A DNA stretch of 47,732 nucleotides from a virus. Below the pieces are notes generated by a model, which saw nothing but the letters and a program-made list of their open reading frames with translations, searched no databases and was not told the origin of the DNA. Both the position numbers and the translations under genes were made by a program. The number at the start of each line of letters is the position of its first letter. Position 1 is the first letter of the stretch. The stretch is from IMG/VR virus record IMGVR_UViG_3300043602_000027, positions 1 to 47,732 of that record. One strand, given 5' to 3'. This document shows positions 2,374-45,515 of this stretch, piece after piece.

Positions 2374-2626
2374 CCTCTAAATCAATTAACACCCAATATT
2401 TTGGTCTGACATCTCTAGGGTCAGCCGTTACATGAAACTCATCTTCACTATATACGAACGCCGCTGCTTCAAATGGCCCATTATCCACTACACAAATCAG
2501 CGCGCGTCCTTCGGGAACTTCACTAAAGCTTTTAGGCTTATGTTGTAGTGCTTCCGCTCCCTCAAATCTAGACTGTATTTGTTGAAGCTTTCCCTTAGAC
2601 TCCGGTAGATTTATATAATATCCCAT
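2342..2626 (-). CDS. hypothetical protein (94 aa)
   Basis: ORF track. The motif ALICVVDNGPFEAAAF...DPRDVRPKYW feels like a recurrent small phage family that I cannot name. Confidence 0.55.
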   Translation of the reverse strand: MGYYINLPESKGKLQQIQSRFEGAEALQHKPKSFSEVPEGRALICVVDNGPFEAAAFVYSEDEFHVTADPRDVRPKYWVLIDLEDAINATGYKG

Positions 2627-2638
2627 CTTATTTACCCC

Positions 2639-2935
2639 TTAATTTACTTTTAATTGTTTGACTAACGCTTCCGCTCTCTCTAATGCCTGCATCTCTTGAT
2701 TACCTGCCATAATGCATACTCTAGCTACTAACTCTCTATCACCTTTTGTGAACGCCAGATACTTCGGCCCGTCTATGATTATAAACGAAGCGTGAACGCC
2801 TGTCAAGGTCGGGTCGGCCAAGAATATTTGACTATACTTCTCTATCAGTAAGCTTAGTCTAACTTCAATAGCCTTTAAAACTTTAGCATCTGCTTCGGCT
2901 AACTCTTTCTTAGACTTCTTTGATTTGCTAGGCAT
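2639..2935 (-). CDS. hypothetical protein (98 aa)
   Basis: ORF track. Tightly packed in the operon. Confidence 0.55.
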   Translation of the reverse strand: MPSKSKKSKKELAEADAKVLKAIEVRLSLLIEKYSQIFLADPTLTGVHASFIIIDGPKYLAFTKGDRELVARVCIMAGNQEMQALERAEALVKQLKVN

Positions 2936-2936
2936 C

Positions 2937-3140: not shown

Positions 3141-3141
3141 T

Positions 3142-3402: not shown

Positions 3403-4982
3403 TTTTTACCCCCACGCTTCTCATAGATTGCTGCCACCAAGCCGCGCACTGTATCTGTTTCATCCCACGCAATAACTTCTGAGTCTCCCATTGTTTGCTT
3501 TACTGACTGGCGTTTCTTCTCAATAAGCTCAGTAAACATTTCATCTACTGTGCCTACTGCAATAGGATACTTTGCCTGCACTATGTTGCGCTGCCCTATA
3601 CGCTGCAATCTCTTCTCAGCTTGTTCTTCATTAGCTGGATTCCATTGCCGCTCCATCATAATTAGCACGTTGCAACTATCTTGCAGTCCGTCTAATCCCT
3701 CTCCCGATGCCAGCGTGCCAAGCACTAACACCCTAAGTCTAGGGTCATTACTAAACTTACGCTTGATATTTTCTTTAGTATCGTTGCTAGTTTTCTCAGT
3801 AATCGCTGCCCAGTCACAGTCGTTAGCTTTACATACTGTGTCTAGCTGCTTGATTAAAACATCGCGCGCAATATGGTGATGGAGAAAAACAATACACTTT
3901 TCTCCGGTGTTATCTAAAGTATCCTGAATATTTTCAACTACTGCACTTATCTTAGCGAGCGCCGTTATCTGGCGCATCTTGTTTAAATACGATAAGATAT
4001 GCTGGTGCTGTGCAAAGCCGTTTAGTTCTCCTTCGTTAGTCTCTATGAAATCAACTAACTCGCCTTCGGTCCTGTCATATGCTTTGCGTAAATCTTTATC
4101 AATATCTAAGTATTGAAAATCCCTGATTAAATCAGGCAGGTCTGGCATTACATCTTTCTGCTCAAACCTAATGATGAAATCTTCAGTGTTCCGCCTAAAC
4201 TCTAGCTCATTTCTTAAGCCACCCACTTTATAGCGATAGCCATCCCAATACTTATCTACGTAACGCGCCTCATAGTATGCTTGGCTTGGAAATCTCTCCG
4301 GCTTAAGTAAATTAAGAATAGAGAAATATTCGCCGCTGTGATTCTTAATAGGAGTGCCAGATATCCCCATGACGTAGGGTTTATCACGGCAGATTCTCCT
4401 GACATTATTTGCTCGTTGGCTTGTAGGATTCTTGATATGTTGGCATTCATCAATGATAACTGTCTTAACATTATCGAAAGCAGCATACTTTTCATCGCTT
4501 AGTCTCCGCAGTAAATCATACGAGATGATATACATCTGAGCGTTTGGGAGAATGAAATCACTAGAGCTTTCGATTATCTGAATCGGTAAATCTAGGTCAA
4601 TCCAATTAACGGATTGCTTCATCCACTGGAATGCAAGATTGCTCTTGCAAATCACCATTGCCGGTAGCATCTTTGCCCTGTTAGTTCTCAGTGCAAGAGC
4701 CGCACAGATTGTTTTACCTAATCCCTGTTCGTGAAAGATTCCTACCCGACCACCAGCTTTTAAAATAAACTCCAGTGTATACTTCTGAAATTCAAATGGC
4801 GTATGGTTAGTTAGAAAGCTTTGTAATTTATCAGTTGGTTCAATTCTATCTAACTCTCTAGTAAACATTGAATGTCCGCATTGCAGCTTGACCATAAACT
4901 CCCGGCCAAACTTCAAACGCGAAACTTCAATAGCTACCTTTCCACAGTTTTTACATTTGATATGTTTTGTAACGCTAGCCAT
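3387..4982 (-). CDS. SNF2-family helicase with N-terminal zinc ribbon
   Basis: CKNCGK...CGH ribbon, then helicase motifs HEQGLGKT (I), IIDECQHIKN (II, DExH), ISGTPIKN (III), and C-terminal ERQWNPANEEQAEKRLQRIGQ (V/VI). Confidence 0.85.
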   Translation of the reverse strand: MASVTKHIKCKNCGKVAIEVSRLKFGREFMVKLQCGHSMFTRELDRIEPTDKLQSFLTNHTPFEFQKYTLEFILKAGGRVGIFHEQGLGKTICAALALRTNRAKMLPAMVICKSNLAFQWMKQSVNWIDLDLPIQIIESSSDFILPNAQMYIISYDLLRRLSDEKYAAFDNVKTVIIDECQHIKNPTSQRANNVRRICRDKPYVMGISGTPIKNHSGEYFSILNLLKPERFPSQAYYEARYVDKYWDGYRYKVGGLRNELEFRRNTEDFIIRFEQKDVMPDLPDLIRDFQYLDIDKDLRKAYDRTEGELVDFIETNEGELNGFAQHQHILSYLNKMRQITALAKISAVVENIQDTLDNTGEKCIVFLHHHIARDVLIKQLDTVCKANDCDWAAITEKTSNDTKENIKRKFSNDPRLRVLVLGTLASGEGLDGLQDSCNVLIMMERQWNPANEEQAEKRLQRIGQRNIVQAKYPIAVGTVDEMFTELIEKKRQSVKQTMGDSEVIAWDETDTVRGLVAAIYEKRGGKKWAMA

Positions 4983-5742: not shown

Positions 5743-6228
5743 TTAGTTTTTATATGCGTTAGTTTTCATTGCCATTAGTTTTTCTTTACTTTCCCGTTCT
5801 TCCTTCATCTCCGGGTAAATCTTCTCTATCATGCAATCGCAGAAACCCATACGCAGCATGGATAGTTGGATTCTCTTAAACAATATTGGATTATGCCGCA
5901 TCATATCTACCAGATAAGAGCCTAGCATAAGCATATCGTTCTTAGTGCTAATCTCAGCAAAGGCGCGCGCGATTTTAATCACTGTTGGCGTTTCAGCTAA
6001 CTTAGCTACTGCCTCTGTTGTCTCCAGTAAATCCTTAGCGAAGAAAGAAAAGATTTTCAGGTTCTCTTCCTCTTCATCCAACTTTACTGGAGAGGTTCCT
6101 TCCATTAGGAAATCTATTAACTCTTCCAGTGAATTAAAATCTTTAATAGTCATCTTATTGCCTATTGCCCAGTTAGTTAAAGTTGCTGCCCTGCCTAGAA
6201 GCCTTTGACACTGTATGCCTGTAGTCAT
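5743..6228 (-). CDS. hypothetical protein
   Basis: ORF track. No SD before 6228, so the real start may be the internal MTIKDFNS (~6153). Confidence 0.5.
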   Translation of the reverse strand: MTTGIQCQRLLGRAATLTNWAIGNKMTIKDFNSLEELIDFLMEGTSPVKLDEEEENLKIFSFFAKDLLETTEAVAKLAETPTVIKIARAFAEISTKNDMLMLGSYLVDMMRHNPILFKRIQLSMLRMGFCDCMIEKIYPEMKEERESKEKLMAMKTNAYKN

Positions 6229-6693: not shown

Positions 6694-6694
6694 A

Positions 6695-7426: not shown

Positions 7427-7864
7427 CTACTCGATTCCTGAATGCCCGATTAAACTAAACAGTGCTAATTCTGCCGGGACGCCTTCCACTATGAATGGCT
7501 CCCATTCAGCGCGCTCTAGTATGTTAGCTATCACGTATGGTTCTTCTCTCAGCGCGGCCCTTAGATACCTATGATTCCCGTCAACTATGAGATGCGTCCC
7601 GTCTGGCATAGCCAGCACGATAATAGGATTGACTTCGCTAGCGTCTAACGCCAAGAGGCGCACTAGTCTATGCTTCTCGATTCCCCTATTACGTGCAATA
7701 AACTCTGCATGAACTAAATCAACTGGGATGCGATACTTTTGTAGCCCAGAATTTGATTTGATATACTCAGCGATGCGCTCAACTGCGAAAGTAGTCAGTT
7801 CTTTCGTGGAGTCATCTTCGTGAGTAAAAGTAATCTCGTTAAGTCTTAGCTCGCTTATGTGCAT
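7427..7864 (-). CDS. ParB-like nuclease domain (ParB/Srx fold) protein
   Basis: Motif LIVDGNHRYLRA (DGxHR) preceded by NPIIVLAMPDG, typical of ParB N-terminal domain proteins. Confidence 0.65.
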   Translation of the reverse strand: MHISELRLNEITFTHEDDSTKELTTFAVERIAEYIKSNSGLQKYRIPVDLVHAEFIARNRGIEKHRLVRLLALDASEVNPIIVLAMPDGTHLIVDGNHRYLRAALREEPYVIANILERAEWEPFIVEGVPAELALFSLIGHSGIE

Positions 7865-8208: not shown

Positions 8209-8997
8209 TTATAGGCCCAACTTTTTCATACGCTCTGCCATTTCTTCCGGTGTGAGCTTATCCCCAAACAAACTAGTTAGCTGCCCCTTTAAATCCAATT
8301 GCACTTTCTTATTCTTTTCTTTCTGGACTAGAGGCGACTTGAGTGCTTTAGGTGCGCCACCTTTGGGGACGTATGTAGAGTCTTCGATTCTTAGCTTATT
8401 CTGTTCGTCTAGGCTAAGAGTCGCAATCATCTTATTAAATTTGATTTGCGCTGCTTGCTTTGCGGTCTTCTTCCGTAGCAATTCAGCTTCTACACTAAAG
8501 ATGTCTTCCTGCGTGGCGATGATAAAGGCGCGCACGTCTTCAACCGACATATCTTTGATATGCTCGACTGTCTGATTAAAGAATTCCTGATACTTATTAG
8601 AATCAGTAGCCTTCAGCCCTACTAGATTAGATTTATTTCTAGCTGCATCTTTCAAGCAGGTAGAGCATAGCTTTAGTGGATTGTTTGGATTCTCTTCCAG
8701 CAACTGTTTAGCATGAGCGCCACATTTACTGCAAGTAGGCCATGTCTGATATTCTGGAACTTCTGGTGGGATTTCTTTACTGGCTGCTAACTCTGAGTCA
8801 TAATGGTCAGAGCAAAGCTTTAGTGTCTTGCCAGCATTAGACTTCAATTCTTTAACTTCAAACTTCGTAAGCTCTTTCTCGCAGATATCGCATCTTATCC
8901 CGAATACTGGAGTAGGCTTTACTTCTGGCGTAATTTCTGGCGCGGCTGGTAGGGGCCGCGCGTATTTTCCTAAAAGATTGGATATATCTATTGCCAT
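8209..8997 (-). CDS. hypothetical protein with two Cys4-type fingers and a basic coiled-coil C-terminus
   Basis: CDICEKEL...CSDH and CSKCGAH...CSTC, then a Lys-rich helical region. Function unknown. Confidence 0.55.
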   Translation of the reverse strand: MAIDISNLLGKYARPLPAAPEITPEVKPTPVFGIRCDICEKELTKFEVKELKSNAGKTLKLCSDHYDSELAASKEIPPEVPEYQTWPTCSKCGAHAKQLLEENPNNPLKLCSTCLKDAARNKSNLVGLKATDSNKYQEFFNQTVEHIKDMSVEDVRAFIIATQEDIFSVEAELLRKKTAKQAAQIKFNKMIATLSLDEQNKLRIEDSTYVPKGGAPKALKSPLVQKEKNKKVQLDLKGQLTSLFGDKLTPEEMAERMKKLGL

Positions 8998-9841: not shown

Positions 9842-9899
9842 TGCCCTCAAAAGTGGACAGTGTGATTGGGGTGTATATAGTATAGGATAGTTTGAATAT

Positions 9900-10994: not shown

Positions 10995-11083
10995 GTTTGA
11001 AATCTGGGTACATCGCGCGGAGCTACCAACTGGATTCTTTAATTTGAGAAGTTTAATTTAAGACTGGGGCTTGTGAGATAAGG

Positions 11084-12430: not shown

Positions 12431-13650
12431 TATCGAATCCCTGCTTCAAGCTTGCGCCTATCGTCTGGTGAGACTCCGAAAAACAGAACGTCGGAGTAAA
12501 CGTCTTCCAAGCTACAGCCATCGTCCAAGAGTGCTACGCCGTTTTCGATGTTACGTGTTCCGAAACAGGCGCGAATACCTAATTCATTTTGCTTTGCGCG
12601 AAGCTTCCATACAAGCTTTACGAAATCTGGCTGAGTAGCACCTAACTTTTGCTCAAGGTCTGTATCGTAAAGCCACTCGATGCCGACGAAACGATTCAGT
12701 GTCGCCATGTCCAATTGTTTTCTATCGGGATGCATACGATTACCGCCATGTCCGAACGTGTTAGCAGCAGCGATAATTCTGAAATTCTCATGCTTTTTGC
12801 ATGTAACCGTTTTGTTTTCGTCGCCATGGTCAGCAGGGAACGAAACGTAATCGTTAGCGATAAGAGAATTCAGATACGTCAGCGCGCCAGCACTTGCAGA
12901 ATCCATTTCATCTACAAGTAACAATCCGCCGTTCACAAATGCATCGCGTATGACCGTCCAGACTGCTTTCCCGCTTGCGTCAGTGAATCCGAAAAAATCA
13001 GATTTCGATGTTTGCGGGCCTACTGAGATAGGGCAGAATTTCAGACCGAGAATTTCAGCAGCTTTGAATCCAGCAGTAGTCTTACCCGTTCCAGCAGGGC
13101 CGACCAGCAGAACGTTACGCTTGAGCCTGAGATAACGCATAAGCTTTGGCATTTGAACGTGACATGAATCGAAACGCTGTAATTCAGTCCCGTTGCTGTC
13201 GTGAATGACAAGCGTATGCTCAACACGTTGAATGCCGGAAAGCTGCTGTTTCAGCTTGGCAATTTCGGCCAGCATTTCAGCTTTCAAAGCTGTTTCAGTC
13301 TGGCTGATTTCAGCTTGCACGTTTGGCCGGATAATGCTGTAGAGCGATGTCGATTCGCTAGTGATTGGCTGAGGCTGAGTCTTCTCAGGCTGAGGCTTGA
13401 ATTCAGGCTCTGGCAATTGCTGAGTCTGGCTAGGTTTTTCAGTCTCAGACTTTGGCAGTTCTACTCCGCCGAAATTCCGTTCTGATTCAGGGATAAAATC
13501 TGTCTTCGGGCCGGTAGTTCTCAGCCCATTTTTGCAGTAATGCACGCTGCCATCATCGACGTTGTGTTGACGGATGCTGCCCGTCGTGTTTTCCCAAGTG
13601 AAAGACGTTTTGCAGTGAAAGCAAGTATGCACGCGTTTCGTTCTAGCCAT
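12430..13650 (-). CDS. CobS/MoxR-like AAA+ ATPase (AAA_5 type) with N-terminal zinc ribbon and P/Q/E-rich linker
   Basis: Walker A VLLVGPAGTGKTT, Walker B GGLLLVDEMDSA, sensor-1 RIIAAANTFGHGGN, LDMATLNRF. N-terminal CFHC...HYC. First gene of the minus arm. Confidence 0.75.
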   Translation of the reverse strand: MARTKRVHTCFHCKTSFTWENTTGSIRQHNVDDGSVHYCKNGLRTTGPKTDFIPESERNFGGVELPKSETEKPSQTQQLPEPEFKPQPEKTQPQPITSESTSLYSIIRPNVQAEISQTETALKAEMLAEIAKLKQQLSGIQRVEHTLVIHDSNGTELQRFDSCHVQMPKLMRYLRLKRNVLLVGPAGTGKTTAGFKAAEILGLKFCPISVGPQTSKSDFFGFTDASGKAVWTVIRDAFVNGGLLLVDEMDSASAGALTYLNSLIANDYVSFPADHGDENKTVTCKKHENFRIIAAANTFGHGGNRMHPDRKQLDMATLNRFVGIEWLYDTDLEQKLGATQPDFVKLVWKLRAKQNELGIRACFGTRNIENGVALLDDGCSLEDVYSDVLFFGVSPDDRRKLEAGIR

Positions 13651-13839: not shown

Positions 13840-13900
13840 GCGAGCGCGCCTATAAATAATGTTAAATTAAAATCATATGGTGCTGGGAAAATATCCAATA

Positions 13901-14422: not shown

Positions 14423-15055
14423 ATGGATATGTTAATATCTGTAGCGGAAGCTTTAGAAAGACTAGAGTCACCGAATAATCTAGCGAATCGGCGTTCAATC
14501 AATGACGCTGATACTCGTAAAACTATTAGGATGAGACTCCCAGAGCATCCAGCGGATACGACTGCAATAGTTCCACTTCACAACGGCGGGCGTAGACCTG
14601 GGGATAAAAATGTTAGTGAGGAAGATAGAGCAAATATCGGCGCAGAGGCTCAAATTAAGACTCTCGCTGAAGTAGCAGCAGATAACAATGTTAGTCTCCA
14701 TCATGTGCATGAGCTTTCCAATGGAATGCACTCTACTGCACAAGGCCAAGACCCAAACTTGGTCAATAACATAAATGAAAAGCTAGATGAACCCCATCAA
14801 CTAGCTCTCAAGAAACTCACCTCTACACTACTTTCAATAGACGAATCAAAGTTAGCTAAAGAGAAGCCTAAAGATTTGGCTAATATGGCGCGCGCCCTCG
14901 CCGGGGTTGCAGAGCATACCGCACCGATTAAACATAAGGGGGCGGAAGAAGATGCCCTAGCTGGTTGTCGTTTAGTGGTATACGCTCCTACTTTGAAGAC
15001 AGAGAACCACTATGAAACAGTTCAGGTTGCTGCACCAGTTAAAATTTTAGATTAA
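14423..15055 (+). CDS. hypothetical DNA-binding-like protein (possible small terminase candidate)
   Basis: The ORF track starts at TTG 14342, which lies inside the consensus promoter. The first ATGs downstream of the predicted TSS are 14423 and 14429, after AGGA. The HTH-like stretch TLAEVAADNNVSLHHVHELSNG is the only clue to function. Confidence 0.5.
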   Translation: MDMLISVAEALERLESPNNLANRRSINDADTRKTIRMRLPEHPADTTAIVPLHNGGRRPGDKNVSEEDRANIGAEAQIKTLAEVAADNNVSLHHVHELSNGMHSTAQGQDPNLVNNINEKLDEPHQLALKKLTSTLLSIDESKLAKEKPKDLANMARALAGVAEHTAPIKHKGAEEDALAGCRLVVYAPTLKTENHYETVQVAAPVKILD

Positions 15056-16024: not shown

Positions 16025-16228
16025 ATGCCATTAGATAGGGAGTCACCAATCAAGCGAACTAAGATAGCCAAGATGGGTATAGCCAAACTTCGTGAGGAAG
16101 GTAAGGCTTATAAATTAACTCCTGAAACTGCAAGAGCAGCAGTAGAAACAAGATGGCGTAACGCGCGCCTCCGAAAGCAGAAAGAACTAGAAGATGCGAT
16201 GATTGCAGCAAACGCGCGCAAACCATAG
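16025..16228 (+). CDS. small basic helical protein directly upstream of terL (small terminase candidate)
   Basis: ORF track. The call rests on position and on Lys/Arg-rich helices only. Confidence 0.4.
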   Translation: MPLDRESPIKRTKIAKMGIAKLREEGKAYKLTPETARAAVETRWRNARLRKQKELEDAMIAANARKP

Positions 16229-16237: not shown

Positions 16238-17866
16238 ATGGAAGAAATCAAGGGTAATTCGGGTAAGATATGGCGTCCACACTCGAAGCAGGAAGAATTT
16301 CTTCAGTTACCCTTCTCTATCTTTGAAGGCTTCTTCGGTGGAGCCGCAGGCCCAGGCAAGACGGAAACACTAATGATGTTTCCTATTGTGCATGGGTTCT
16401 ATAAGCATCCCGGCTTTAAAGGAATTCTACTGCGCCGCACGTTTCCAGACTTAGAGAAAGAGATAATACTAAGAAGTCAAGAGTATTTCCCACTAACAGG
16501 CGGGAAGTATAATGAACAAAAGAAACGATGGTCATGGCCGTGGGGCGCATACTTTATCTTTGGACATGCTGAACATGAGAAAGATATACGTAGTTACGAT
16601 TCTGCTGAATATAACTATGTTGCTTTCGACGAACTTACTCACTTCACAGAGTTTCAATATCTTTATCTCGTTCTTACTAGGTGTCGTAGCAGCGACCCTA
16701 GTTTACCTGCTATCGTCCGCAGTGCTAGCAACCCTGGGAATATTGGTCACTCGTGGGTTAGAAAAAGATTCATCGAACCATATAAAGAAGGTGGGCGGAT
16801 ATTAGAAGAGAAAGTCAGAGATATTACTGGTAAGGAAGTAACTAATAAGAGAATCTTTATACCAGCATATGCTACTGATAATCCTACTCTACTAAAGAAT
16901 GACCCCGGCTATCTCGCAAGAATGGAGATGCTGCCGGAAGCTGAGAAGCGCGCAAAGATTCATGGAGATTGGTGGACATTTAGCGGGCAAGTCTTTAGGG
17001 AATTTCGTAGTGAGAAATTTCCAGATGAGCCAGCGAATGCAATCCATGTTGGGGAGCCAGTAAGAATACCCGATTGGTGGCCGCGATTCGCTCATTTTGA
17101 TTGGGGGACTACCGCAGCGACTGTTGGTTACTGGGGCGCACTATCTCCAAATAGTAAGCTATATGTTTATCGGGAATACTCAGAAAAAGGTAAGAAAGTA
17201 TTTGATTGGGGAACTGACTTCAAACAACTTTCTTTTGGGGAAAACGTTAGGCGAGTAGGTCTGTGTCATTCAGCATTTGCACAACGTGGTGAAGAATTTA
17301 CACTAGCGCAGCAGTTCCAAAAGTATGCTGGGATGGAACCGGCTAGTTCGGGAAGAGATAGAATCGGTGGGAAGATGTTACTCCATGATTTCCTGAGATG
17401 GAAACCATTGGAGACAATTAGATTAGATAAGTCGGAATTCGACCAGACACTAGCAGATAAGATATATAGATTCTATGGGGAAGCGAAGCTAAATGAATAC
17501 TTAGCTCACTTCAAAGACCCTGAGCCAGAAACGAATATTCCCCGGCTCTATATATTTGATTCATGCACTGAGCTTATCAATACCATACCGCTCTGCGTGT
17601 ACGATGAAACAAATAAGGAAGATGTCGCTGAGTTTGATGGAGATGACCCCTACGATTCAGTGCGCGGCTTACTCAAGATATGTGATAACTATTTACGTGA
17701 AGCGCGCGCAGATAGAAGCAGGGACGAAGCCGTAGAGAAAGTAATGAATAAGTTAGAAGTAACTAATGACCAGACTCAGTTTTATCGCCAAATGGAATTC
17801 CTTGACGCAAAGAATAAGAAACCTGTTTTTGGCGTTAGGCGGCCTAGTCGCTTTGGTCGGAGATAA
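16238..17866 (+). CDS. terL: terminase large subunit
   Basis: Walker A GGAAGPGKTE, Walker B YVAFDELTHF, and a C-terminal nuclease-like region. The ORF track starts at GTG 16235, but the ATG at 16238 is preferred. Confidence 0.85.
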   Translation: MEEIKGNSGKIWRPHSKQEEFLQLPFSIFEGFFGGAAGPGKTETLMMFPIVHGFYKHPGFKGILLRRTFPDLEKEIILRSQEYFPLTGGKYNEQKKRWSWPWGAYFIFGHAEHEKDIRSYDSAEYNYVAFDELTHFTEFQYLYLVLTRCRSSDPSLPAIVRSASNPGNIGHSWVRKRFIEPYKEGGRILEEKVRDITGKEVTNKRIFIPAYATDNPTLLKNDPGYLARMEMLPEAEKRAKIHGDWWTFSGQVFREFRSEKFPDEPANAIHVGEPVRIPDWWPRFAHFDWGTTAATVGYWGALSPNSKLYVYREYSEKGKKVFDWGTDFKQLSFGENVRRVGLCHSAFAQRGEEFTLAQQFQKYAGMEPASSGRDRIGGKMLLHDFLRWKPLETIRLDKSEFDQTLADKIYRFYGEAKLNEYLAHFKDPEPETNIPRLYIFDSCTELINTIPLCVYDETNKEDVAEFDGDDPYDSVRGLLKICDNYLREARADRSRDEAVEKVMNKLEVTNDQTQFYRQMEFLDAKNKKPVFGVRRPSRFGRR

Positions 17867-32168: not shown

Positions 32169-32437
32169 TTATCACACTATTGAATTCTGCTAAGCTAGCA
32201 GTGGATTTCACTCAGGAAGAAGGAGAGGTCATCGACTATCTTCTTGAGAATTCCGATGGCATTGCGGCAGTGCGCCAATTTCTCAATCTGATGATAGAGA
32301 ATAAGCGCGCCCAAATGCAGGAGCATATTCGCATAGTCTCCTACAAAACTATAGTGGAAAATGCTGACATAAACGAAGCGATGGCACTAGCTAATCCCGA
32401 ACTGGCTAATGCAATACGAGCGGTAAAAGAGGTCTAA
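32165..32437 (+). CDS. hypothetical protein (90 aa)
   Basis: ORF track. ATGA coupling. Confidence 0.5.
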   Translation: MIITLLNSAKLAVDFTQEEGEVIDYLLENSDGIAAVRQFLNLMIENKRAQMQEHIRIVSYKTIVENADINEAMALANPELANAIRAVKEV

Positions 32438-32438: not shown

Positions 32439-33644
32439 ATGGCCGATTGGACACAGCCAGTAAACACTACTCTCTATAACTTAGTATTATCAATACTGAG
32501 AGATAGAGACTTTGATGCTGGTTCTTTGTTTGTTGCTCCACCTACTAATCCCATCGCAGGGATGATTAGATTTGACCGCACTGGTAATAAATTTCAGGAA
32601 TATGATGGCACTCAGTGGCAGGATAAAATCTTATCGGTAGCTGGCGGTGGCACTGGAGCATCTACAATAAACGATATTAGAAATAGTTTAGGGTTGGGCA
32701 CGATGTCCACCCAGAATTCTAATAACGTAAATATTACTGGCGGCACAATCACTGGTGTCCCCATACAGGCTCCTAGTTTAGTTGGTCAAGTTCCACCAGC
32801 AAGCTTAGGCACTGGGCCAGCAAACTCTGGCACTTGGCTTCGTGGTGACATGACATGGCAGACTATACCAGCAGGTGTTCCTACGGGGTGTATCTTTGGA
32901 TATGCAGGGGCTACGCCCCCTGCTAGTTATGTTTTATGCGATGGAGCCGCCCATAGTAGAACCACCCAAGCTGCGTTGTTTGCTGTTTGTGGAACAGCAT
33001 TTGGTGCTGGCGACTTATCTACTACTTTTAACGTTCCTGATTTACGTCAGCGTTTTCCTATGGGAAAAGCTGCTAGCGGGACTGGTTTAGTTTTAGGTAG
33101 TGTCGGCGGTGCGATAGACCACGTTCATGCTGAAGGCGCGCACACGCACACAATAGCCGCACACGCGCACACGGTCGCTTCTCACGTTCACTCTGGTGCA
33201 TCACACACCCACGGTTATAGTGGTGGGACAAGTGCTGATGGAAATCACGACCACGGTGGAACGCAACAAACCGGTCTAAACGCTGACCACAGCCATTCAT
33301 TTAGTGGTGGTGGGACAACTGGTGGTGAAAACGCTGGCACCATGAACGTCGATGCGGGCAATTCTGGTCTAATGGCCCGCGCTGGTCATGGTCACGATTT
33401 TGGATATAGTGGTAATACTAGCCATGTTAATATTGGATTGACACATGGACATAATATTAACTTTAGTGGTAATCACGGTCATACTTTTAGTGGAACTACT
33501 GATGCTGGTAGCTCCGGTGGTAATACTGGCGCTGCTGCACCGGCAACAGATGCGGTAGCTTTGACTACTGCGGTTAATGCTGCGGCTAACACTGGTGCAA
33601 ACAATCCCCCATTCCAAGTAATAAACTTTATTATTCACGTATGA
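32439..33644 (+). CDS. tail fibre with phage tail-collar domain and HxH-repeat distal region
   Basis: VAGGGTGASTINDIRNSLGLG fibre N-terminal motif. Tail-collar pattern FGYAGATPPASYVLCDGAAHSRTTQAALFAVCGTAFGAGDLSTTFNVPDLRQRFPMG. Then HVH, HTH, HAH, HVH, HTH, HDH, HSH, HGH repeats (about 33120-33480). Confidence 0.8.
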   Translation: MADWTQPVNTTLYNLVLSILRDRDFDAGSLFVAPPTNPIAGMIRFDRTGNKFQEYDGTQWQDKILSVAGGGTGASTINDIRNSLGLGTMSTQNSNNVNITGGTITGVPIQAPSLVGQVPPASLGTGPANSGTWLRGDMTWQTIPAGVPTGCIFGYAGATPPASYVLCDGAAHSRTTQAALFAVCGTAFGAGDLSTTFNVPDLRQRFPMGKAASGTGLVLGSVGGAIDHVHAEGAHTHTIAAHAHTVASHVHSGASHTHGYSGGTSADGNHDHGGTQQTGLNADHSHSFSGGGTTGGENAGTMNVDAGNSGLMARAGHGHDFGYSGNTSHVNIGLTHGHNINFSGNHGHTFSGTTDAGSSGGNTGAAAPATDAVALTTAVNAAANTGANNPPFQVINFIIHV

Positions 33645-35340: not shown

Positions 35341-36842
35341 TGGCTAACGAATATCGCTTCCCCAGTATGATGTTTGGTGCTAATCCACAAAAAGTTAGGC
35401 AACCATCTTTCGGTAGTTTTAATATGGGTGGTCAGGACTTTGGTGCGCGCCCTCTACCTATGCCAGCGATGCCGCCGATGGCGCAACAGCCGCAAGAAGA
35501 CCAATATGCATCAATGATGGAGAGAATATTTAATCAGCCTAATCCATCTATTACTGCATATAAACAGCATCTTAACACTATGCCCAATCGTGAGGATTAT
35601 AAGCCTAACATTGGCAATAGAGTCCTTACTGGATTAGTTGGTGCTGCTGAAGGGATTCAGCGTGGTGCGGGCGCTGGTGTGGCTGCTGGTCAAGCTTTTA
35701 TGGATAGACCATACAATGAAGCTTTGATGGATTATCAGAATAAAGGTAATAGACTGGGCCAGCTAGCAGAGCTTGAGGATAAAGATGTAAGAAGTAAGAT
35801 GACCTTTGCTGCAAGCATGATGGAAGAGAAGAGAAAGAATCGTGACCTTGATATTAAAGTAGAGAGATATGCCGCGCAGAATGGTTTGAATAAAGCTCAA
35901 ACCGATAAGATTATGCAAGAGCTAAAGACTGGTCGTATCGAACTGAAGCAGAACGATAAGACTGGTGAGATGATGAGAATAAATTTGGATACTGGGGAGC
36001 AAACCAGTATGGGCCAGTATGCTCAGACTCCTGAAGAGAAAGCTAGAACTGAAGTTGATAAACATCGTCAAACTTCTGGGATAGATTTGGGTAATAAAAA
36101 GAATCTATTTGACTTTGAATTGCCTAAGACTGAAGCTTCACAGATTAAAGTGCATGAAGCTAATCGCATGTCTGATGCAGCTAACCCAATTAGTAATACT
36201 ACTGGATTCAATTCGCTTGCTCCATCGCAGGGAGACATAGCACATAATAGTGCTATTGGTAAAGTGATTATGAAGAATCCAAATTGGTATAAGTTTGCTG
36301 ACCCCAATCCTGCAAATGCAAAAGAAGTAGCTGCGGCTGCTGCTGCGGACAGAAAAGGATATGAGGAATTTTTAGCTGCTGTAGACCAAGTAGAAGCTGA
36401 GATTATTAGCAAAAACCAAAAAACTCCAGTGACTGCTACAGCTAGACCTAGACCTAACGTGGGAACTATTGCACCAATCACTGCGCCTGCTGCGCCACAA
36501 GTTAACTTTGGTAGCAATAAGTTTACTATGGGCGCGCCTCCGGTAAATTCGTTCTCTTTACCCGGAACCAATAGGCCAGTGCCTCCACCGGCACAAATGC
36601 CTATGCCTATGCCACCACCGGCTACAACGCCCGCACCTATAGCTAGAACTGCACCGCCAGTGGCACCAGTTAGACCTATTGCACCGCCAAAGCCACCGGC
36701 ATCAAGTGGGACTACGCCACTAGGTTCCCCAGTGAATGACCCAAGGACCGCGCGCGCGATTGAGGAACTACGTAAAGATGGACAGCCTATTACTCCACAG
36801 ATGATTGAATGGATGTTGAAGCAGCCTGATTTTCAGGAGTAG
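35340..36842 (+). CDS. Pro-rich internal-virion-like protein
   Basis: The ORF track starts at GTG 35331. ATG at 35340 (TAATG overlap) is preferred. Pro/Ala-rich C-terminal third. Confidence 0.55.
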   Translation: MANEYRFPSMMFGANPQKVRQPSFGSFNMGGQDFGARPLPMPAMPPMAQQPQEDQYASMMERIFNQPNPSITAYKQHLNTMPNREDYKPNIGNRVLTGLVGAAEGIQRGAGAGVAAGQAFMDRPYNEALMDYQNKGNRLGQLAELEDKDVRSKMTFAASMMEEKRKNRDLDIKVERYAAQNGLNKAQTDKIMQELKTGRIELKQNDKTGEMMRINLDTGEQTSMGQYAQTPEEKARTEVDKHRQTSGIDLGNKKNLFDFELPKTEASQIKVHEANRMSDAANPISNTTGFNSLAPSQGDIAHNSAIGKVIMKNPNWYKFADPNPANAKEVAAAAAADRKGYEEFLAAVDQVEAEIISKNQKTPVTATARPRPNVGTIAPITAPAAPQVNFGSNKFTMGAPPVNSFSLPGTNRPVPPPAQMPMPMPPPATTPAPIARTAPPVAPVRPIAPPKPPASSGTTPLGSPVNDPRTARAIEELRKDGQPITPQMIEWMLKQPDFQE

Positions 36843-39229: not shown

Positions 39230-40852
39230 ATGGGACAAAATTGGTTTGGGAATACTAACGTAGAGATTCCCGAGCAGTGGAAATTAAAGGAAGTGAAAAT
39301 CCCTGAGCAAATCAGGGACTATACGGGCGCGCCTATTCCTGCAAAGATTCCTCCCCCACCAGCAGCAGTTAAGCCAACGATGCCTAACGCTGAGGAAACG
39401 CTGAAAACTGGATTGGGGAAAGCATTCAATTGGGCAACCACTCCAATAGCCCCAGAATTTGAGGAAGCTGAGAATGCTACTGTAGAAGATGTAAAGAAGA
39501 AGTTTGGTGGATTTGCTGGAAAGCTAGCAGACTGGGAAGTAAAGGGAATATCTAGCCCTGCTGGTATTGCTACTCTAGGTGCTGGCGTTCCCTTTATTAA
39601 GATGGCTAAAAAGCTTGGGATAAACAAGCTTTATCACGGCACCCCTCACAACATAAATATGTTTGATATAGCAAAAAATGACCCAACTGATACATTGGGT
39701 TATATGATTCATGCTGCTGAAGAACCAGAGTATGCAGCTACCTATGCATTTAAAAAAGGTGACCCAGCTAATAAAGCTAAAGCTTCTTGGCTACCGGGCT
39801 ATAAGGTTCCTGAGCCTAATGTTATTCCTATTGTTCCTAAAGCAAAAAATGTTTTGGATATAACTGACTTCCCAGAAGGAGAAGATTTAGATAAGGTAGC
39901 TGAAGCACTTAGGATGTGGAATCCTGAGCAAAGTGCTCTTGGTTCTAGAGAAAGATTAACATCTAGTAGAGCTAAACAATTACTAGATGAGATTGAACAT
40001 GTTAAAAAATTAAAAGGAAGAAAAGATTTAACAGCAGACCAATTGATGGGACTAGAAGCATATAAAACTAGTTGGTTAAATGATGCTAGAATTCCATTTA
40101 ATAATCCAGAAATAACAGAGAAGATGGGCTTCGATGCTATTAGATATAATGATGTACATAAAAAAGCTTGGGCATTTCCTAATCCAGAAATTCTAGAAAC
40201 TCCTTGGGGCACTAAGCTTGGACAGAAACAAGACACAAAGAAAATCTGGGATATGAATGTTTCTAATCTTAGAAAAGAACAAGAAAAAGAAATGGCAGGT
40301 TTAGTTGGCTCTGGTGGATGGACTAAGGTAGGTACTAGTAATTCTTTATTTACTCCAATGTCAGCAGGTCAAAAAAATATTAGTCCACCAAAACCAAAGA
40401 ATGAGCCTTTTGAATATGAGATATTTAATCCTAAAACTGGAGTTTCTGTAAAGAAAGTTAAAACTTTAGATGAAGTTATAGATGAGATGCAGAGTAGCAG
40501 TAATTCAGCTTACCTTGACTTCCAAGCATTAGATGATAAAGGCTTCGGAATGGACGTTGAATTTTATCCAGAAACAATAGCAGCAAATATAAATAAGAAA
40601 TTAGCAAAAGGAGAAAACTTTACTACCGATGTTTTGACCCATGCTGGTAATCCTAAAATTAAACATTTGGATATGCCAGAGCTAGAGGGATACTATGAAG
40701 TATATGACCCTAAGAATGGCAAGATAGCTAAAATTGTTCCATCTAAGTATGATGCAGATGAATTGGTTTATAATAACAAATGGTTAGCTTATAAACCAAT
40801 TGGTGGAAATTCTCCTAAGACACTTAAGACTGTTAATAAAATTAATCCTTAA
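39230..40852 (+). CDS. internal-virion-like protein with a possible polyvalent-protein ART-like domain
   Basis: KLYHGTPHNINMFD...LGYMIHAAEEPEYAATYA ... MGFDAIRYND..KKAWAFPNPEILE resembles the LYHGT / G-x-YF..A..YA / G[FY]DGI...vvF.P.qI pattern I associate with ART-PolyVal-type domains. From memory only. Confidence 0.4.
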   Translation: MGQNWFGNTNVEIPEQWKLKEVKIPEQIRDYTGAPIPAKIPPPPAAVKPTMPNAEETLKTGLGKAFNWATTPIAPEFEEAENATVEDVKKKFGGFAGKLADWEVKGISSPAGIATLGAGVPFIKMAKKLGINKLYHGTPHNINMFDIAKNDPTDTLGYMIHAAEEPEYAATYAFKKGDPANKAKASWLPGYKVPEPNVIPIVPKAKNVLDITDFPEGEDLDKVAEALRMWNPEQSALGSRERLTSSRAKQLLDEIEHVKKLKGRKDLTADQLMGLEAYKTSWLNDARIPFNNPEITEKMGFDAIRYNDVHKKAWAFPNPEILETPWGTKLGQKQDTKKIWDMNVSNLRKEQEKEMAGLVGSGGWTKVGTSNSLFTPMSAGQKNISPPKPKNEPFEYEIFNPKTGVSVKKVKTLDEVIDEMQSSSNSAYLDFQALDDKGFGMDVEFYPETIAANINKKLAKGENFTTDVLTHAGNPKIKHLDMPELEGYYEVYDPKNGKIAKIVPSKYDADELVYNNKWLAYKPIGGNSPKTLKTVNKINP

Positions 40853-41642: not shown

Positions 41643-41732
41643 ACTCTCTCCTGTTACCGTCGCTTAAGTTACTAACCACCCGTGAAAGACGCGCGCCCTT
41701 ATTTACCCATCGTCACTCCCCTTTCTAGTAAC

Positions 41733-42983
41733 TTAGTCTCCACCCTGTTGGAACTTGAGATAGATATCCAGTGAACTTTTCGTGAGCTTGTAAGTTACTA
41801 CGGACTTACTGCCATGTCCATTGCGATTGACATCTATGGCTTTATTCTGGATAAGCGTTTCAACTATCCTATCCAAATCGAAAGCATCTAATTCTCCCCA
41901 GTGCTTTTGTAAAATTTTATGTCTCGCTACTTCATGGCTAGGAACACTCAGTAATTCCTGTAAGAATACCGCAGTCTTCTCAGCAAACTCACCTTTCCCT
42001 ACTGGCATCATTGTTCGATTAACGTTGCCAGCTAAGTCCATACTTTCTTCTATTGCTTCATTAATATCCTCTGCCTCTAAAATTAAAGTTTGGCGCTTTG
42101 CTAAACTTAACAGCATTGCTACTTTAAGTATCTGGTCGTGGATGCGTCCCATCGTGCCAGTTTTATCGTATGTCTTTTGACCACTAAAGTCGGTATACCA
42201 TTTGTCATAGACATCTTTTGCTTCAGGATGAAATCTAAACCTACCCTTTATCTTACTGATTTCCTCTAACCACTTTGCTAGCTTTGGATAGTCTAGCATT
42301 TCCTCTTCTTCATCAGTTTCTACATCAGTAGTATCGTCAGTAAGAGGCTCGATATTAGCACGCTCGTTAGCGTAAACCAAAAAACTACGCCCAATAATGC
42401 CCCCTTCCACGTCAGCGCCAGTAATAGATTGCTTGAGATAAGAAGGATTGCTGCCACCCAACATCGTAACGTAGACTTCTTTAAGTTCTTCGACGCCAGT
42501 GCCTTTGAGCGTTGTTTTCCAATCATCTGTGAAGTCTCCGTCGTATAGGTCAGTGAGAATACTGATAGCTTGCGGGTCTGCCACTAAGCTAGCTCGAAAC
42601 TCAGAGGCGCAAATAAAGCAAGAGCTAGTATCTCTTATCTTCCCAGATTTAGTTGTATACGCTGTTGATAGTTCTTTGAGTATGCCCTGTATACTGGAAC
42701 GTCCTGTGATTATTCTAGTGTTATCTACTATCTTCACTAGTTTCTTTGCCATCTTTATAGGCACACCTTTACGAACTGCCGCAGAATCTCCAATCAAGAA
42801 TGTATAGATGTTGGGATAAAGAATATATGCAGTTGCTTTATCCTTACGCTTTCTTAGGTATACATTTCTTTTCATCACCGCGCTAAGTGCAGATAATGCT
42901 GACCAGTAAAAGAACTTCTTAGGAGGTTCAAGACCACTGGTTGCGTCTAATATCTCATTGACCCAATTATGCTTGTTTGGCAT
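41733..42983 (-). CDS. DUF3987-like replicative helicase-type protein (non-canonical P-loop)
   Basis: FFYWSALSALSAVM...YPNIYTFLIGDSAAVRKGVPI...CFICASEF resembles DUF3987 / D5-type helicase cores. However, the Walker A position reads GDSAAVRKG rather than GxxxxGK[ST]. Confidence 0.5.
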   Translation of the reverse strand: MPNKHNWVNEILDATSGLEPPKKFFYWSALSALSAVMKRNVYLRKRKDKATAYILYPNIYTFLIGDSAAVRKGVPIKMAKKLVKIVDNTRIITGRSSIQGILKELSTAYTTKSGKIRDTSSCFICASEFRASLVADPQAISILTDLYDGDFTDDWKTTLKGTGVEELKEVYVTMLGGSNPSYLKQSITGADVEGGIIGRSFLVYANERANIEPLTDDTTDVETDEEEEMLDYPKLAKWLEEISKIKGRFRFHPEAKDVYDKWYTDFSGQKTYDKTGTMGRIHDQILKVAMLLSLAKRQTLILEAEDINEAIEESMDLAGNVNRTMMPVGKGEFAEKTAVFLQELLSVPSHEVARHKILQKHWGELDAFDLDRIVETLIQNKAIDVNRNGHGSKSVVTYKLTKSSLDIYLKFQQGGD

Positions 42984-42998
42984 CGTCTTGCTTTGGCA

Positions 42999-45515
42999 TT
43001 AAGCTACCTTTTTAAACTTTTCCAAGTCTTTGTAGTTCTCTCTGCCTATTGTGAAATCAGCAGGAATTATTAATTTATAATCCCGCTGGAAAGTCCCAAA
43101 ACTAAAATCAATCGGACGCTCAAGTTCTTCTCTAGCAGTGCCGATATACTCGGCAATTTGATTCTCGTTATTTGGGATTAGTGCCAGCAAAGCGTCGTGC
43201 CCTTCCAAGACATACTTGACCCACTTCAGTCTTCGCTGAACTCTCATCCCTGCGTGCTTAGTCTGATTACTAACCACTGACTGCGGCAAATAACTATAAG
43301 CTTCTTTGAGAAGGTCATTCGACCACCTATCAAAAAACATACGTCGGGTGCCGCGCGACATTACATTGCCATATGGGTCATACAGTAATGGCCCGTCTAA
43401 TATCCTATCTTTGTTTAACTTCTCTTCTATTGTAGCATGAAACACGCCACGAACTTTAGGGCAATTCTTGTGAAATTCTTCTAGGATTTTACCAGCGCGC
43501 CACTCACTTATCTTTAGGTCAAAGCCATATTTCTTGGCATCCGTGTTCACGTTCATCATAAACGTGTGCTTTTGGATACCCAAATTTCCCGCGTGCCTGC
43601 CAGTTTTACCTATAAACCGGCGCATATCTTCTTTGTCTAGCTTTGCTTTACACTCGAAAACATTGGGCAGTTCTTTGAATACCCACGTTGCGACTTGCCA
43701 GTGTAAATCAAATCGCGGGTCATCCAATAAAGCTAGCGACTCCCAATCTTCTGCTAAAACAAAAACAACTCTAGCTTCTGCTTGTGATAAGTCAGCGTTG
43801 ATAAATACATATCCTTCGTCGGGAATATACATCTCACATATATCAGCACCGACATCTCCATGTTTGGTGAGAGTCTGGAATGCAACTCCCATAGACTTCT
43901 CAGGACGAATAGGCGCAGCAATATTGCTAGTGCTTGTTCTGTCAGTTTCAGTTCCGCATATGTTATAGCACGTTCGCATTCTACCGTCGTAATCTGGTTT
44001 AGCGAGGATATATGTAGAAACAGTTTTACGTATCTTCCGTTCCTCAAGAATATCTGACAGGATATTTTTCGTTCGCTCTGATTTAGCATTGTTCGCCATT
44101 AACGCAGTGAGCGTTTCTTCATCTGCTGACGGAGTTTTAATCTTTGAACCATCCTTCTTCTTTCTAACTTTAAAACGCATAGGTAACTTAAGGTCTGTAT
44201 AAACACACCTAATGACTTGAGGCGTCGAACCAACGTTGAGGTCATAACCTAAGTTCCCTGTTGTCCTAGCGTGAACTGTCTCGTAGAGTAGAAGATACTT
44301 ATCTAGTAGCTGTTGCCTCTTTACTTCATCAACTCTAAATCCCACTCGCTCCATGTCTAGATAGAAGCGATGCCTTGGCATATAGCAGGTATGATAAAGC
44401 TCGATAAGTCCAAGCTCTGTCATCTCTTCATACTGGCAATCATGCACTTCTTCGGTTACTGGTGCATCTTTGGCATTGTAAAGAAGTCTACGCTCGTAGC
44501 TATCTTTCTTAATGTCAAACTCTTTACGCTCATCTTTATAGTATGGCTCTCTCGTATATATACTGGAAAGGAAGCCTAAGAATTTTGGCATCTCTGGATT
44601 CAATACATGGGATGCAATACTCGTATCCCCCCATAGCATATCTAATACAAATCCTAGCCTTAGTATCTTGTCTTCATCATACTTAAAGTTCTGTCCTATC
44701 TTTTTAATCTTTGGGTCGTTTAAAACTTCTGCTGCTGCTTTCCAGATATGAGCTAGCTCAGTTGCTGGTATGCCTCTCACGTTGACGCAGGACATTGCAT
44801 CAAACAATGGGATTGACATACCCTGTGCGCGCCCTGCACTAAAACTCATACAGTCGGGGACGCACTTTAGAGCTTCGATATCTACGGCAGTTTTACCATT
44901 CTTATAAATCTCTTCAACAAACCGATAGAAGTGCAGGCTACCGTGGCAAATCTCCAGCGTGCGTTCGGGTAAATCTAGAGTCTCTGTCAGCGATTCTTCC
45001 AACGCCCGCGCTATATCATGTCTTATGACTTGCTTGTAAAGAAATTTAAAAACTCCACGGCCCGATTCAATGTCGTCATTCTGGTAAAGTAAATTCGCCG
45101 GGTGCCACGTTGCTACGACTTTCGGAATTCCCTGAATAGAGGGAAGTATAGAGCCGCGCCAGTTGCCAATCCCTTTCTTACCAGTAAGAGCCGTCAACGC
45201 GCGCTCGCCTAATGCCAGTATGCAATTAGGTTTTACACTTTCTATCTCATCCCACAGTAATTTAACTTGTGTATCTAGGTCTGGCTCGCCGGGATTCCAA
45301 ATTGTGAAATCGTTATTAGGTGGTCGATATTTTCTGACGTTAGTAACATAAACTTGATTGCGACTTGAGCCAGCTTCTTCTAAAAACTTATCTAGTAACT
45401 CACCAGATGGCCCAACAAAGGGCCGCCCTTGCTCATCTTCATTTTTACCGGGCGCTTCTCCAACTATCATCAGTCTGCTGGAGAATGGCCCCATACCCGG
45501 AACGAACTTCGCCAT
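42999..45515 (-). CDS. family-A DNA polymerase fused to an N-terminal UDG-family-4-like domain
   Basis: UDG4 motifs IVGEAPGKNEDEQGRPFVGPSG and WHPANLL. Exo-like AVDIEA. Pol motif A INADLSQAEARV, motif B RRFIGKTGRHAGNLG, motif C LEGHDALL. Confidence 0.85.
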   Translation of the reverse strand: MAKFVPGMGPFSSRLMIVGEAPGKNEDEQGRPFVGPSGELLDKFLEEAGSSRNQVYVTNVRKYRPPNNDFTIWNPGEPDLDTQVKLLWDEIESVKPNCILALGERALTALTGKKGIGNWRGSILPSIQGIPKVVATWHPANLLYQNDDIESGRGVFKFLYKQVIRHDIARALEESLTETLDLPERTLEICHGSLHFYRFVEEIYKNGKTAVDIEALKCVPDCMSFSAGRAQGMSIPLFDAMSCVNVRGIPATELAHIWKAAAEVLNDPKIKKIGQNFKYDEDKILRLGFVLDMLWGDTSIASHVLNPEMPKFLGFLSSIYTREPYYKDERKEFDIKKDSYERRLLYNAKDAPVTEEVHDCQYEEMTELGLIELYHTCYMPRHRFYLDMERVGFRVDEVKRQQLLDKYLLLYETVHARTTGNLGYDLNVGSTPQVIRCVYTDLKLPMRFKVRKKKDGSKIKTPSADEETLTALMANNAKSERTKNILSDILEERKIRKTVSTYILAKPDYDGRMRTCYNICGTETDRTSTSNIAAPIRPEKSMGVAFQTLTKHGDVGADICEMYIPDEGYVFINADLSQAEARVVFVLAEDWESLALLDDPRFDLHWQVATWVFKELPNVFECKAKLDKEDMRRFIGKTGRHAGNLGIQKHTFMMNVNTDAKKYGFDLKISEWRAGKILEEFHKNCPKVRGVFHATIEEKLNKDRILDGPLLYDPYGNVMSRGTRRMFFDRWSNDLLKEAYSYLPQSVVSNQTKHAGMRVQRRLKWVKYVLEGHDALLALIPNNENQIAEYIGTAREELERPIDFSFGTFQRDYKLIIPADFTIGRENYKDLEKFKKVA

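Follow-up and report, generated by a model that had tools for sequence, protein, structure and literature searches.

The hexamer palindrome GCGCGC is strongly over-represented in the phage genome held as IMG/VR virus record IMGVR_UViG_3300043602_000027, the whole of which (positions 1 to 47,732; 47,732 nt) was analysed and is referred to here as the window. An exact count over these 47.7 kb gave 38 overlapping occurrences at 34 loci (0.71 per kb), about 6-8 times expectation. It is this palindrome, and not alternating G/C sequence generally, that is enriched; among related phages its density lies near a set level, its sites are conserved, and the word is kept or purged by lineage. The reading preferred here, in which about half of our confidence is placed, is that GCGCGC is a selected, dispersed recognition word. 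The window is derived from soil or sediment and carries a 24-base terminal repeat; as its first 24 bases recur at 47709-47732, the assembly is circular and the genome complete at ~47,708 bp. The same phage (98.8-100% identity) has been assembled independently in at least five other samples or metagenomes with the GCGCGC sites intact, and the shared sites are thus features of the sequence and not assembly artefacts.

The first-pass annotation of this DNA had reported GCGCGC at 34 loci or more, a G+C content of ~43% and about five expected sites. All 34 listed loci exist, four of their coordinates being off by 1-10 bases, and the exact values are 43.3% G+C and 4.9 occurrences under a model of independent, identically distributed (iid) bases. 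Markov models of order 0, 1, 2, 3 and 4 predict 4.9, 6.3, 9.4, 17.1 and 41.2 occurrences, respectively, and dinucleotide-preserving shuffles (n=100) gave 6.5±2.4 with a maximum of 12. Thirty-six occurrences lie within coding sequences (CDSs). Shuffling of synonymous codons in these yielded 6.9±2.6 within genes and 5.4±2.4 when pooled, and a third-position shuffle preserving dinucleotides yielded 19.4±3.6 and 11.7±3.3, respectively; the observed number was matched by 0 of 1000 replicates in every codon-shuffle scheme. The null-model check that had been proposed therefore gives a divided answer, with codon shuffles producing 5-19 sites against 36 but order 4 formally reproducing the count. The maximal-order Markov test (41 predicted) was set aside as uninformative, the word overlapping itself and the test being circular: the order-4 fit is an artefact, since GCGCG and CGCGC, on which the model conditions, are overlapping pentamers of this very word and share its enrichment (151 observed vs 97 under order 3).

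Within CDSs, the word falls in all three codon phases (12/8/16) and encodes Ala-Arg, x-Arg-Ala or (Arg/Gly)-Ala-x, so that the Ala-Arg and Arg-Ala coding noted previously does occur but is not the whole of it. The dipeptides themselves are not enriched (AR, 65 vs 58 expected; RA, 60 vs 58). GCG and CGC are minor codons, accounting for 17% of Ala and 16% of Arg codons, and are preferred exactly where they build the word, with CGC for example being used in 28 of the 60 Arg-Ala pairs. The suggestion that selection acts on the DNA word through synonymous codons was upheld, as all three frames and genes on both strands are used and codon shuffles fall short.

When maximal alternating G/C runs of at least six bases are counted, 37 of the 40 in the window lie in CDSs (coding fraction, 0.91). 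Their spacing is more even than random (coefficient of variation 0.70, P about 0.01), the largest gap being 2.9 kb vs 4.9 kb expected. Segments poor in sites had been suggested to have a different history; as the gaps are no larger than chance, their interpretation as foreign DNA was rejected. The sites are as follows, with the strand (given as "." throughout) in brackets; where a coordinate differs from that of the first-pass annotation, the earlier value is shown.

2500..2506 (.), GCGCGCG run with GCGCGC
3863..3869 (.), CGCGCGC run with GCGCGC
5963..5971 (.), GCGCGCGCG run with two overlapping GCGCGC
7509..7514 (.), isolated GCGCGC
8528..8533 (.), isolated GCGCGC
12882..12887 (.), isolated GCGCGC
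13844..13849 (.), isolated GCGCGC, intergenic between the divergent arms
14888..14895 (.), GCGCGCGC run with two overlapping GCGCGC
16162..16168 (.), CGCGCGC run
16213..16219 (.), CGCGCGC run
16948..16953 (.), isolated GCGCGC in the large terminase gene, common to relative L012
17702..17709 (.), GCGCGCGC run in the large terminase gene, encoding E-A-R-A-D
18565..18571 (.), CGCGCGC run in the portal gene (Y-R-A-H), common to L012
19395..19401 (.), GCGCGCG run in the portal gene (V-R-A-W)
19567..19572 (.), isolated GCGCGC in the portal gene; synonymous GCT AGA in L012, GCGCAC in relative L013
20322..20329 (.), CGCGCGCG run in the portal gene, common to L013
21439..21445 (.), CGCGCGC run
22778..22783 (.), isolated GCGCGC in the open reading frame (ORF) 21994-23241, whose homologue in L012 and L013 is 86-87% identical
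24090..24096 (.), GCGCGCG run (previously 24100)
24885..24890 (.), isolated GCGCGC (previously 24886)
25408..25414 (.), CGCGCGC run
26816..26822 (.), GCGCGCG run
29749..29754 (.), isolated GCGCGC (previously 29750)
29846..29852 (.), CGCGCGC run
32305..32310 (.), isolated GCGCGC (previously 32315)
33136..33141 (.), isolated GCGCGC
35445..35450 (.), isolated GCGCGC
36532..36537 (.), isolated GCGCGC
36749..36758 (.), CGCGCGCGCG run, the longest, with two overlapping GCGCGC
39327..39332 (.), isolated GCGCGC
41690..41696 (.), CGCGCGC run, intergenic
43495..43500 (.), isolated GCGCGC in the UDG-PolA gene
44827..44832 (.), isolated GCGCGC in the UDG-PolA gene
45198..45204 (.), CGCGCGC run in the UDG-PolA gene
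8957..8962 (.), CGCGCG without overlapping GCGCGC
11014..11019 (.), CGCGCG without overlapping GCGCGC
19260..19265 (.), CGCGCG without overlapping GCGCGC
19996..20001 (.), CGCGCG without overlapping GCGCGC
21805..21810 (.), CGCGCG without overlapping GCGCGC
43352..43357 (.), CGCGCG without overlapping GCGCGC

The excess had been described as specific and not a general effect of G/C words, which is so, though CGCGCG (28 copies in the window, 22 of them overlapping a GCGCGC) had been overlooked. To separate the two words, maximal alternating runs were counted in place of hexamers, in the window and in a pool of 32 related loci (470 kb). Isolated GCGCGC occurs 16 times in the window vs 4.3±2.2 in shuffles and 167 times in the pool vs 46.5 expected (3.6-fold), while isolated CGCGCG in the pool is at expectation (43 vs 46.5, 0.93-fold). 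Shorter runs in the pool are not enriched (isolated GCGC 0.83-fold, isolated CGCG 0.67-fold), and longer ones are enriched more strongly (7-mer runs 4.2-5.6-fold, CGCGCGCG 6.8-fold and GCGCGCGC 10.9-fold). Calculated from odds ratios, dinucleotide biases explain only a ~1.5-fold difference between GCGCGC and CGCGCG. The enriched unit is therefore the palindrome GCGCGC, with CGCGCG and the pentamers high mainly as overlaps or one-off neighbours; the claim that the palindrome itself is the unit survives the removal of overlaps. That no extended consensus flanks it also holds, the flanks of 372 pooled sites showing weak preferences only (G/C at -1/+1 and G at -2). The variant GGCGCAC, one transition from GGCGCGC, is likewise enriched (15 sites, e.g. 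7657, 17135, 23552, 25694, 34898 and 41107; 9 and 6 by orientation vs 1.8 and 1.5 under codon shuffles), and these copies may represent former sites that have decayed, or variants that are tolerated.

A physical property of alternating G/C, be it Z-DNA propensity or duplex stability, or slippage of dinucleotide repeats would account for the climb of enrichment with run length, and selection for Z-DNA-prone (GC)3 tracts had been one of the meanings first proposed. Such properties are common to both phases of the alternation and are excluded by the 0.93-fold value of isolated CGCGCG, which has near-identical stability and Z-DNA potential to GCGCGC. Moreover, other alternating purine-pyrimidine hexamers are depleted in the window (ACACAC, 3 vs 10; TGTGTG, 1 vs 12), and slippage would shift reading frames. 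Six base pairs are in any case too short for a flip to Z-DNA under physiological supercoiling. This explanation is retained at a level close to negligible.

The enrichment runs against an otherwise extreme avoidance of palindromes, which confirms that its direction is the unexpected one; phage surveys report restriction-site avoidance (PMC6286503). GATC is absent from the window (0 copies vs 180 expected), and GTAC (11 vs 180) and CCWGG (9 vs about 60) are rare. Of the 64 hexamer palindromes, about 38 occur twice at most, including every other NGCGCN and NCGCGN palindrome. The comparison palindromes named previously are indeed rare, with GGCGCC, GCCGGC, CGGCCG and GGGCCC having no copy and CCGCGG one; CCCGGG too has none. 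Non-palindromic all-G/C hexamers and CTAG (1.3-fold) are not depleted. Avoidance of this extent implies that the phage meets a very large range of Type II restriction systems.

Almost no weight can be given to a statistical or coding artefact, whether its source is sought in codon usage, Ala/Arg content, local patches of G+C or the avoidance of other palindromes. Such an artefact would be favoured by the order-4 prediction, by the about 1.8-fold enrichment in the window of G/C runs of at least seven bases, and by the dinucleotide-preserving codon shuffles, which lift the expectation to 12-19. The observed count nonetheless lies beyond every shuffle scheme, and the order-4 figure is undone by its conditioning on the word's own pentamers. 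Of the 485 hexamer windows made up of G and C only, 66 are one of the two alternating words (15 expected) and 1 is one of the other six palindromes (45 expected). Lastly, a simulation of synonymous swaps barring 40 avoided words let GCGCGC fall to about 10, and the excess as a by-product of avoiding other palindromes was rejected.

The phage belongs to a family defined here by its portal-like protein, which has hundreds of metagenomic homologues, and run densities were obtained from 72 loci. The density of alternating runs of at least six bases is bimodal: 17 loci have less than 0.1 per kb ('off') and the remainder ('on') have 0.2-1.4 per kb, nearly all at least 0.4, with a mode of 0.8-1.0. 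Density is independent of G+C content (0.36-0.57), though the iid expectation climbs over that range from 0.05 to 0.72 per kb (~fourteen-fold). GCGCGC is the sole hexamer palindrome recurrently over-represented across the family (12 loci, P<1e-4). 'On' and 'off' loci are interspersed on the tree of the portal-like protein, and both states coexist with very different avoidance profiles for GATC, GTAC and CCWGG, which implies different host populations. No gene near the portal tracks the on/off state, only clade-level correlations being seen.

Site conservation was assessed in 19 independent locus pairs with 75-92% nucleotide identity, the expectation being taken from flanks of ±40 nt. GCGCGC was conserved at 0.55 vs 0.34 expected (ratio 1.63, n=196), and in the same pairs the ratios were 0.94 for hexamers of three G and three C, 1.03 for one-off variants and 0.49 for isolated CGCGCG. 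The contrast with these controls corresponds to z of about 3-4, a rough estimate that allows for double-counted shared sites. Differences between relatives at the sites are mostly C/T transitions at CpG; in L079, which is 95.7% identical to L083, GCGCGC has been lost through C-to-T changes and CGCGCG kept. Strain-level polymorphism (0 substitutions in site columns vs 1.5 expected) has no power. In the close relative L013, GTTAAC is over-represented besides GCGCGC (18 vs 4-6 expected).

As a selected recognition word, GCGCGC would be kept at about one copy per kb by selection acting via synonymous codons on both strands, and its reader would be a symmetric sequence-specific protein acting on double-stranded DNA, symmetry being suggested because the site is a contiguous 6-bp palindrome without flanking consensus. 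The preferred candidate is a GCGCGC-specific DNA methyltransferase (BssHII-type specificity), encoded either by the host or by a phage gene that went unrecognised, whose mark would be used in some process on the kilobase scale, for instance replication or the choice of strand in repair. Lineages in hosts with a matching restriction enzyme would lose the word, mostly by C-to-T change, and some would adopt another word. The methyltransferase is a tentative part of this proposal and draws on analogy with the highly iterated palindromes (HIPs) of cyanobacteria: HIP words, at 1000-2000 per Mb, co-occur with cognate methyltransferases (PMC4390886), and selection conserves HIP1 sites in every frame (PMC5861425). 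Of the meanings offered by the first-pass annotation, the data agree best with a recognition word for a methyltransferase, recombination or packaging factor, although no such factor turned up.

Several observations weigh against a selected word read by a methyltransferase. No methyltransferase, restriction enzyme or Vsr-like gene was found among the 65 ORFs using Pfam, PHROGs and NCBIfam. A PADLOC scan returned 43 matching families, the best 25 of the 43 all being SNF2-helicase models. At ~70% nucleotide identity, the window shares 2 of 18 sites with L012 and 1 of 13 with L013, which is about the neutral level. Conservation alone is no proof of function, as repair protecting existing sites would also conserve them. 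Isolated CGCGCG is mildly high in the window alone (6 vs 2.2±1.5 in shuffles), and the even spacing of runs reaches significance in the window only, the relatives giving a combined z of -1.45. Words found in place of GCGCGC in some relatives, described below, are non-palindromic and one is strand-specific, which fits a reader other than a Type II enzyme at least as well. A host search through a PEP-CTERM gene established no host, most homologues being in other phages, and the only candidate host clade reached by it, the Vicinamibacterales, is without a GCGCGC-specific excess.

The gene in question (window 40890-41642, minus strand) encodes a 250-aa protein whose C-terminal end is a PEP-CTERM exosortase sorting signal (…VPEPATMLLLGTGLIFGAKYRRKFVAR). 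Unrelated phages of 57-67% G+C have copies of it that are 58-69% identical, on contigs of 12.6 to 130 kb. A homologue (50% identical) adjoins an exosortase EpsH/EpsI locus in a Vicinamibacterales-like bacterial contig, the peptidase gene of which is 77-86% identical to metagenome-assembled genomes (MAGs) of Vicinamibacterales (Acidobacteriota). In such MAGs (1.38 Mb, 66% G+C), GCGCGC and CGCGCG are at 2.09- and 2.19-fold by composition and ~1.0 under order 3, and the signature is opposite to that of the phage (GATC 2.9-fold and CTAG 0.07-fold vs 0 and 1.3-fold). Vicinamibacterales is a doubtful host, since the 43% G+C and AGA-rich codons of the phage argue otherwise. The reading of GCGCGC as a host-genome signature, also raised at first, found no support in these MAGs.

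The unrelated phages do bear on the loss of the word. In L094, a phage contig of 122 kb, GCGCGC occurs 0 times vs 24 expected and CGCGCG 20 vs 24, a clean signature of BssHII-type restriction. GCGCGC is likewise scarce in L103 (1 vs 15.5) and L102 (0 vs 6.3), and neutral in L097. L103 has 42 GCCGGC and 33 CGGCCG vs 15.5 expected, with GCGCGC, GGCGCC, CCGCGG and GGGCCC at 0-1. As the word is purged in L094, L103 and L102, BssHII-type restriction pressure is present in these communities, and ordinary avoidance of BssHII-type sites probably explains the 'off' state of some relatives. The on/off pattern would then be a readable record of phage lineages meeting BssHII-type restriction.

Alternatively, the word could be imposed by the host without any function in the phage. 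A host methyltransferase coupled to biased short-patch or mismatch repair would ratchet near-misses into GCGCGC and protect existing sites, as in the ratchet model proposed for HIPs in cyanobacteria (PMC4390886). Saturation of density near 1 per kb whatever the G+C content is what that model predicts (PMC4390886); on/off states that flip between close relatives resemble host-strain factors, no enzyme of the phage's own was detected, and the site differences are mostly C/T transitions at CpG. The neighbours that such repair would consume are still present, however. C-to-T neighbours are not depleted (GTGC+GCAC, 305 vs 310), GTGCGC+GCGCAC is even enriched (32 vs 13 expected), and a very-short-patch-repair signature was rejected. 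The word also recurs in lineages whose avoidance profiles imply different hosts, the unrelated phages with the host-type PEP-CTERM gene avoid it, and the candidate host clade has no specific excess. A host ratchet is thus considered unlikely.

GCGCGC is not the only dispersed word in this family. In L017, an 'off' relative, TAACCGGG occurs in 11 copies vs 0.33 expected on both strands (e.g. 7722, 9372, 9817 and 11052), and it is also present in L018 and L020. GGCGCGG is found seven times vs 0.5 expected in both L025, on one strand only, and L074, where it is split 6:1; TTCCGCG reaches about 10 vs 1.5 in L081 and L093. The window itself has a second dispersed word, TCCCGGY, with 33 copies on both strands vs 4.6±2.3 on shuffling (15 and 13 by orientation vs 3-4 under codon shuffles). 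Copies cluster in the structural genes (16-27 kb), and examples lie at 1400, 4900, 16408, 20712, 21891, 22152, 23743, 25687 and 38287. TCCCGGY is enriched in relatives L015, L017 and L083 and absent in L066 and L002. Inverted arrays of 12-bp-spaced repeats with the core TTTCCCGG(Y) lie at 9664-9721 and 10072-10129, flanking an A-rich tract (about 9890-9925) in an intergenic region of about 9.6-10.26 kb; their layout resembles an origin of replication of the iteron type or a major regulatory region. No copy of GCGCGC lies there.

GCGCGC may thus be one instance of a broader dispersed-word habit in this phage family. In a wider reading, the family would use an undescribed class of genome-wide signal, made up of short lineage-specific words spread through the coding DNA at about 0.4-1 per kb, with a fast-evolving, sequence-specific reader; it is a possible account, held at clearly less than even confidence. 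Its words, at the same strength, would be GCGCGC in the window and most relatives, TAACCGGG in the L017 clade, the strand-specific GGCGCGG in the L025/L074 clade and TCCCGGY, also the origin iteron, in the window. If true, the family would possess a system of its own, machinery included, analogous in phages to HIP, uptake or Chi words, and GCGCGC would merely be the most visible example.

The same words bear on the proposal that GCGCGC is recognised by the phage replication machinery, for example in lagging-strand priming or in loading of a helicase or primosome. A kilobase-scale density independent of G+C, a palindrome serving both strands, even spacing in the window and the same word across a divergent family with a common replication module would all suit it, as would TCCCGGY, which doubles as the iteron core and shows that dispersed replication-type sites occur here. 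Relatives without GCGCGC bear other dispersed words, one confined to one strand. On the other hand, the primases of T7 and T4 and DnaG recognise 3-5 nt of single-stranded DNA and do not depend on a palindrome. A primase catalytic domain was not identified in the window, where a 416-aa protein matches only the helicase part of primase-helicase families. GCGCGC is lacking at the putative origin, and complete loss of the word in close relatives would demand a simultaneous change of specificity. A replication word is distinctly unlikely on this balance.

A Chi-like signal, giving protection or recombination against a host exonuclease of the RecBCD/AddAB type with the palindrome acting from either end, is less probable again and is regarded as improbable. 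Known Chi words are short and G/C-rich, some containing GCGCG (Lactococcus GCGCGTG), and phages can be selected to bear the Chi of their host; replacement words specific to a lineage, including the G-rich and strand-biased GGCGCGG, fit a host-specific Chi. Chi is read on one strand in one direction, and to our knowledge all known examples are asymmetric. GCGCGC is its own reverse complement, and on the sense strand its two pentamers, GCGCG and CGCGC, occur equally often (68 vs 69), so that the asymmetry of a Chi-type word is not seen. The density of E. coli Chi is about 0.2 per kb, well below the 0.8 per kb found here. The E. coli-type Chi octamer GCTGGTGG occurs five times and its complement three times vs 0.8 expected, and TGCTGG, TGGTGG and CTGGTG are in marked excess within the tail genes at 27-40 kb (e.g. 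27746, 34240, 37700 and 38378). Real Chi enrichment was rejected for GCTGGTGG, as the copies lie mostly on the coding strand of Gly-rich tail genes, pointing to a protein-repeat effect.

Among known systems, GCGCGC as a selected word most resembles HIP1 (GCGATCGC) and the alternate HIPs (GGCGCC, GCSGC, GGGATCCC and RCCGGY) of cyanobacteria. Like these, it is a G+C-rich palindrome at ~1 per kb, enriched in all reading frames by codon choice, with sites that beat control words in conservation, common one-off variants, and loss or replacement in some lineages. Unlike these, it is a different 6-mer and sits in a lytic-type phage genome and not a cellular chromosome, without a cognate methyltransferase gene in the element. 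HIP1 is absent from the phage, as is GATC; the word coexists with near-total avoidance of other palindromes, and its enrichment is 4-11-fold vs 15-300-fold. Alternating G/C runs of at least six bases are otherwise suppressed in prokaryotes (PMC4060949). Restriction-site avoidance is the second comparison: GCGCGC is the BssHII/PauI site and is purged in about a quarter of relatives (17/72) and in several unrelated phages, whereas the window and most relatives enrich and conserve it.

The DNA uptake sequences of Neisseria, the uptake signal sequences of Haemophilus and Chi are also short, lineage-specific words in coding DNA, at about 1 per kb or less and against codon preference, but they are asymmetric, 8-12 nt long, cellular and tied to competence or RecBCD; the strand bias of Chi is impossible for a palindrome. 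Nick sites of phages T5 (R/GCGCRGG), tf (TACTRTGMC) and the phiKMV-like group are phage-group-specific words scattered over the genome and recall the strand-confined GGCGCGG of L025 and L074; the T5 consensus contains GCGC (PMC3517423). These are asymmetric, on one strand and present at 4-14 per genome, and a palindrome nicked on both strands would leave the genome cut. No report of GCGCGC or HIP-like word enrichment in phages was found in the open-access literature. What is new here is that an iterated palindrome occurs in a phage, lacks a resident methyltransferase and is switched on or off among relatives. Accumulation of one palindrome by a palindrome-shedding phage points to a positive, sequence-specific requirement outweighing the restriction risk. 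The function of iterated palindromes in cyanobacteria has been debated for ~30 years, and a 48-kb phage with ~34 sites is a far more tractable system.

The gene content of the window (65 ORFs) includes the large terminase, tail genes, an SNF2 helicase, a PD-(D/E)XK nuclease and a CobS-like ATPase. An 818-aa protein is taken to be the portal from its position and size, being without a Pfam match. No tRNA or integrase was found in the window. Megablast showed no close relative among cultured phages, the best protein identities being ~30%, and no relative was found as a prophage or MAG-binned sequence among 185,579 species genomes. The UDG-PolA gene (42999-45515, minus strand) encodes a family-4 uracil-DNA glycosylase (UDG) domain fused to a family-A DNA polymerase with 3'-5' exonuclease; the fusion weakly matches the aminoadenine-incorporating DpoZ model (E 3e-12), and no PurZ-type gene was seen. 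A Tad2-like (Thoeris anti-defence) gene is located at 15544-15765 (plus strand), and an Acb2/Tad1 hairpin domain was also matched in this genome. The phage therefore carries sponge-type anti-defence genes.

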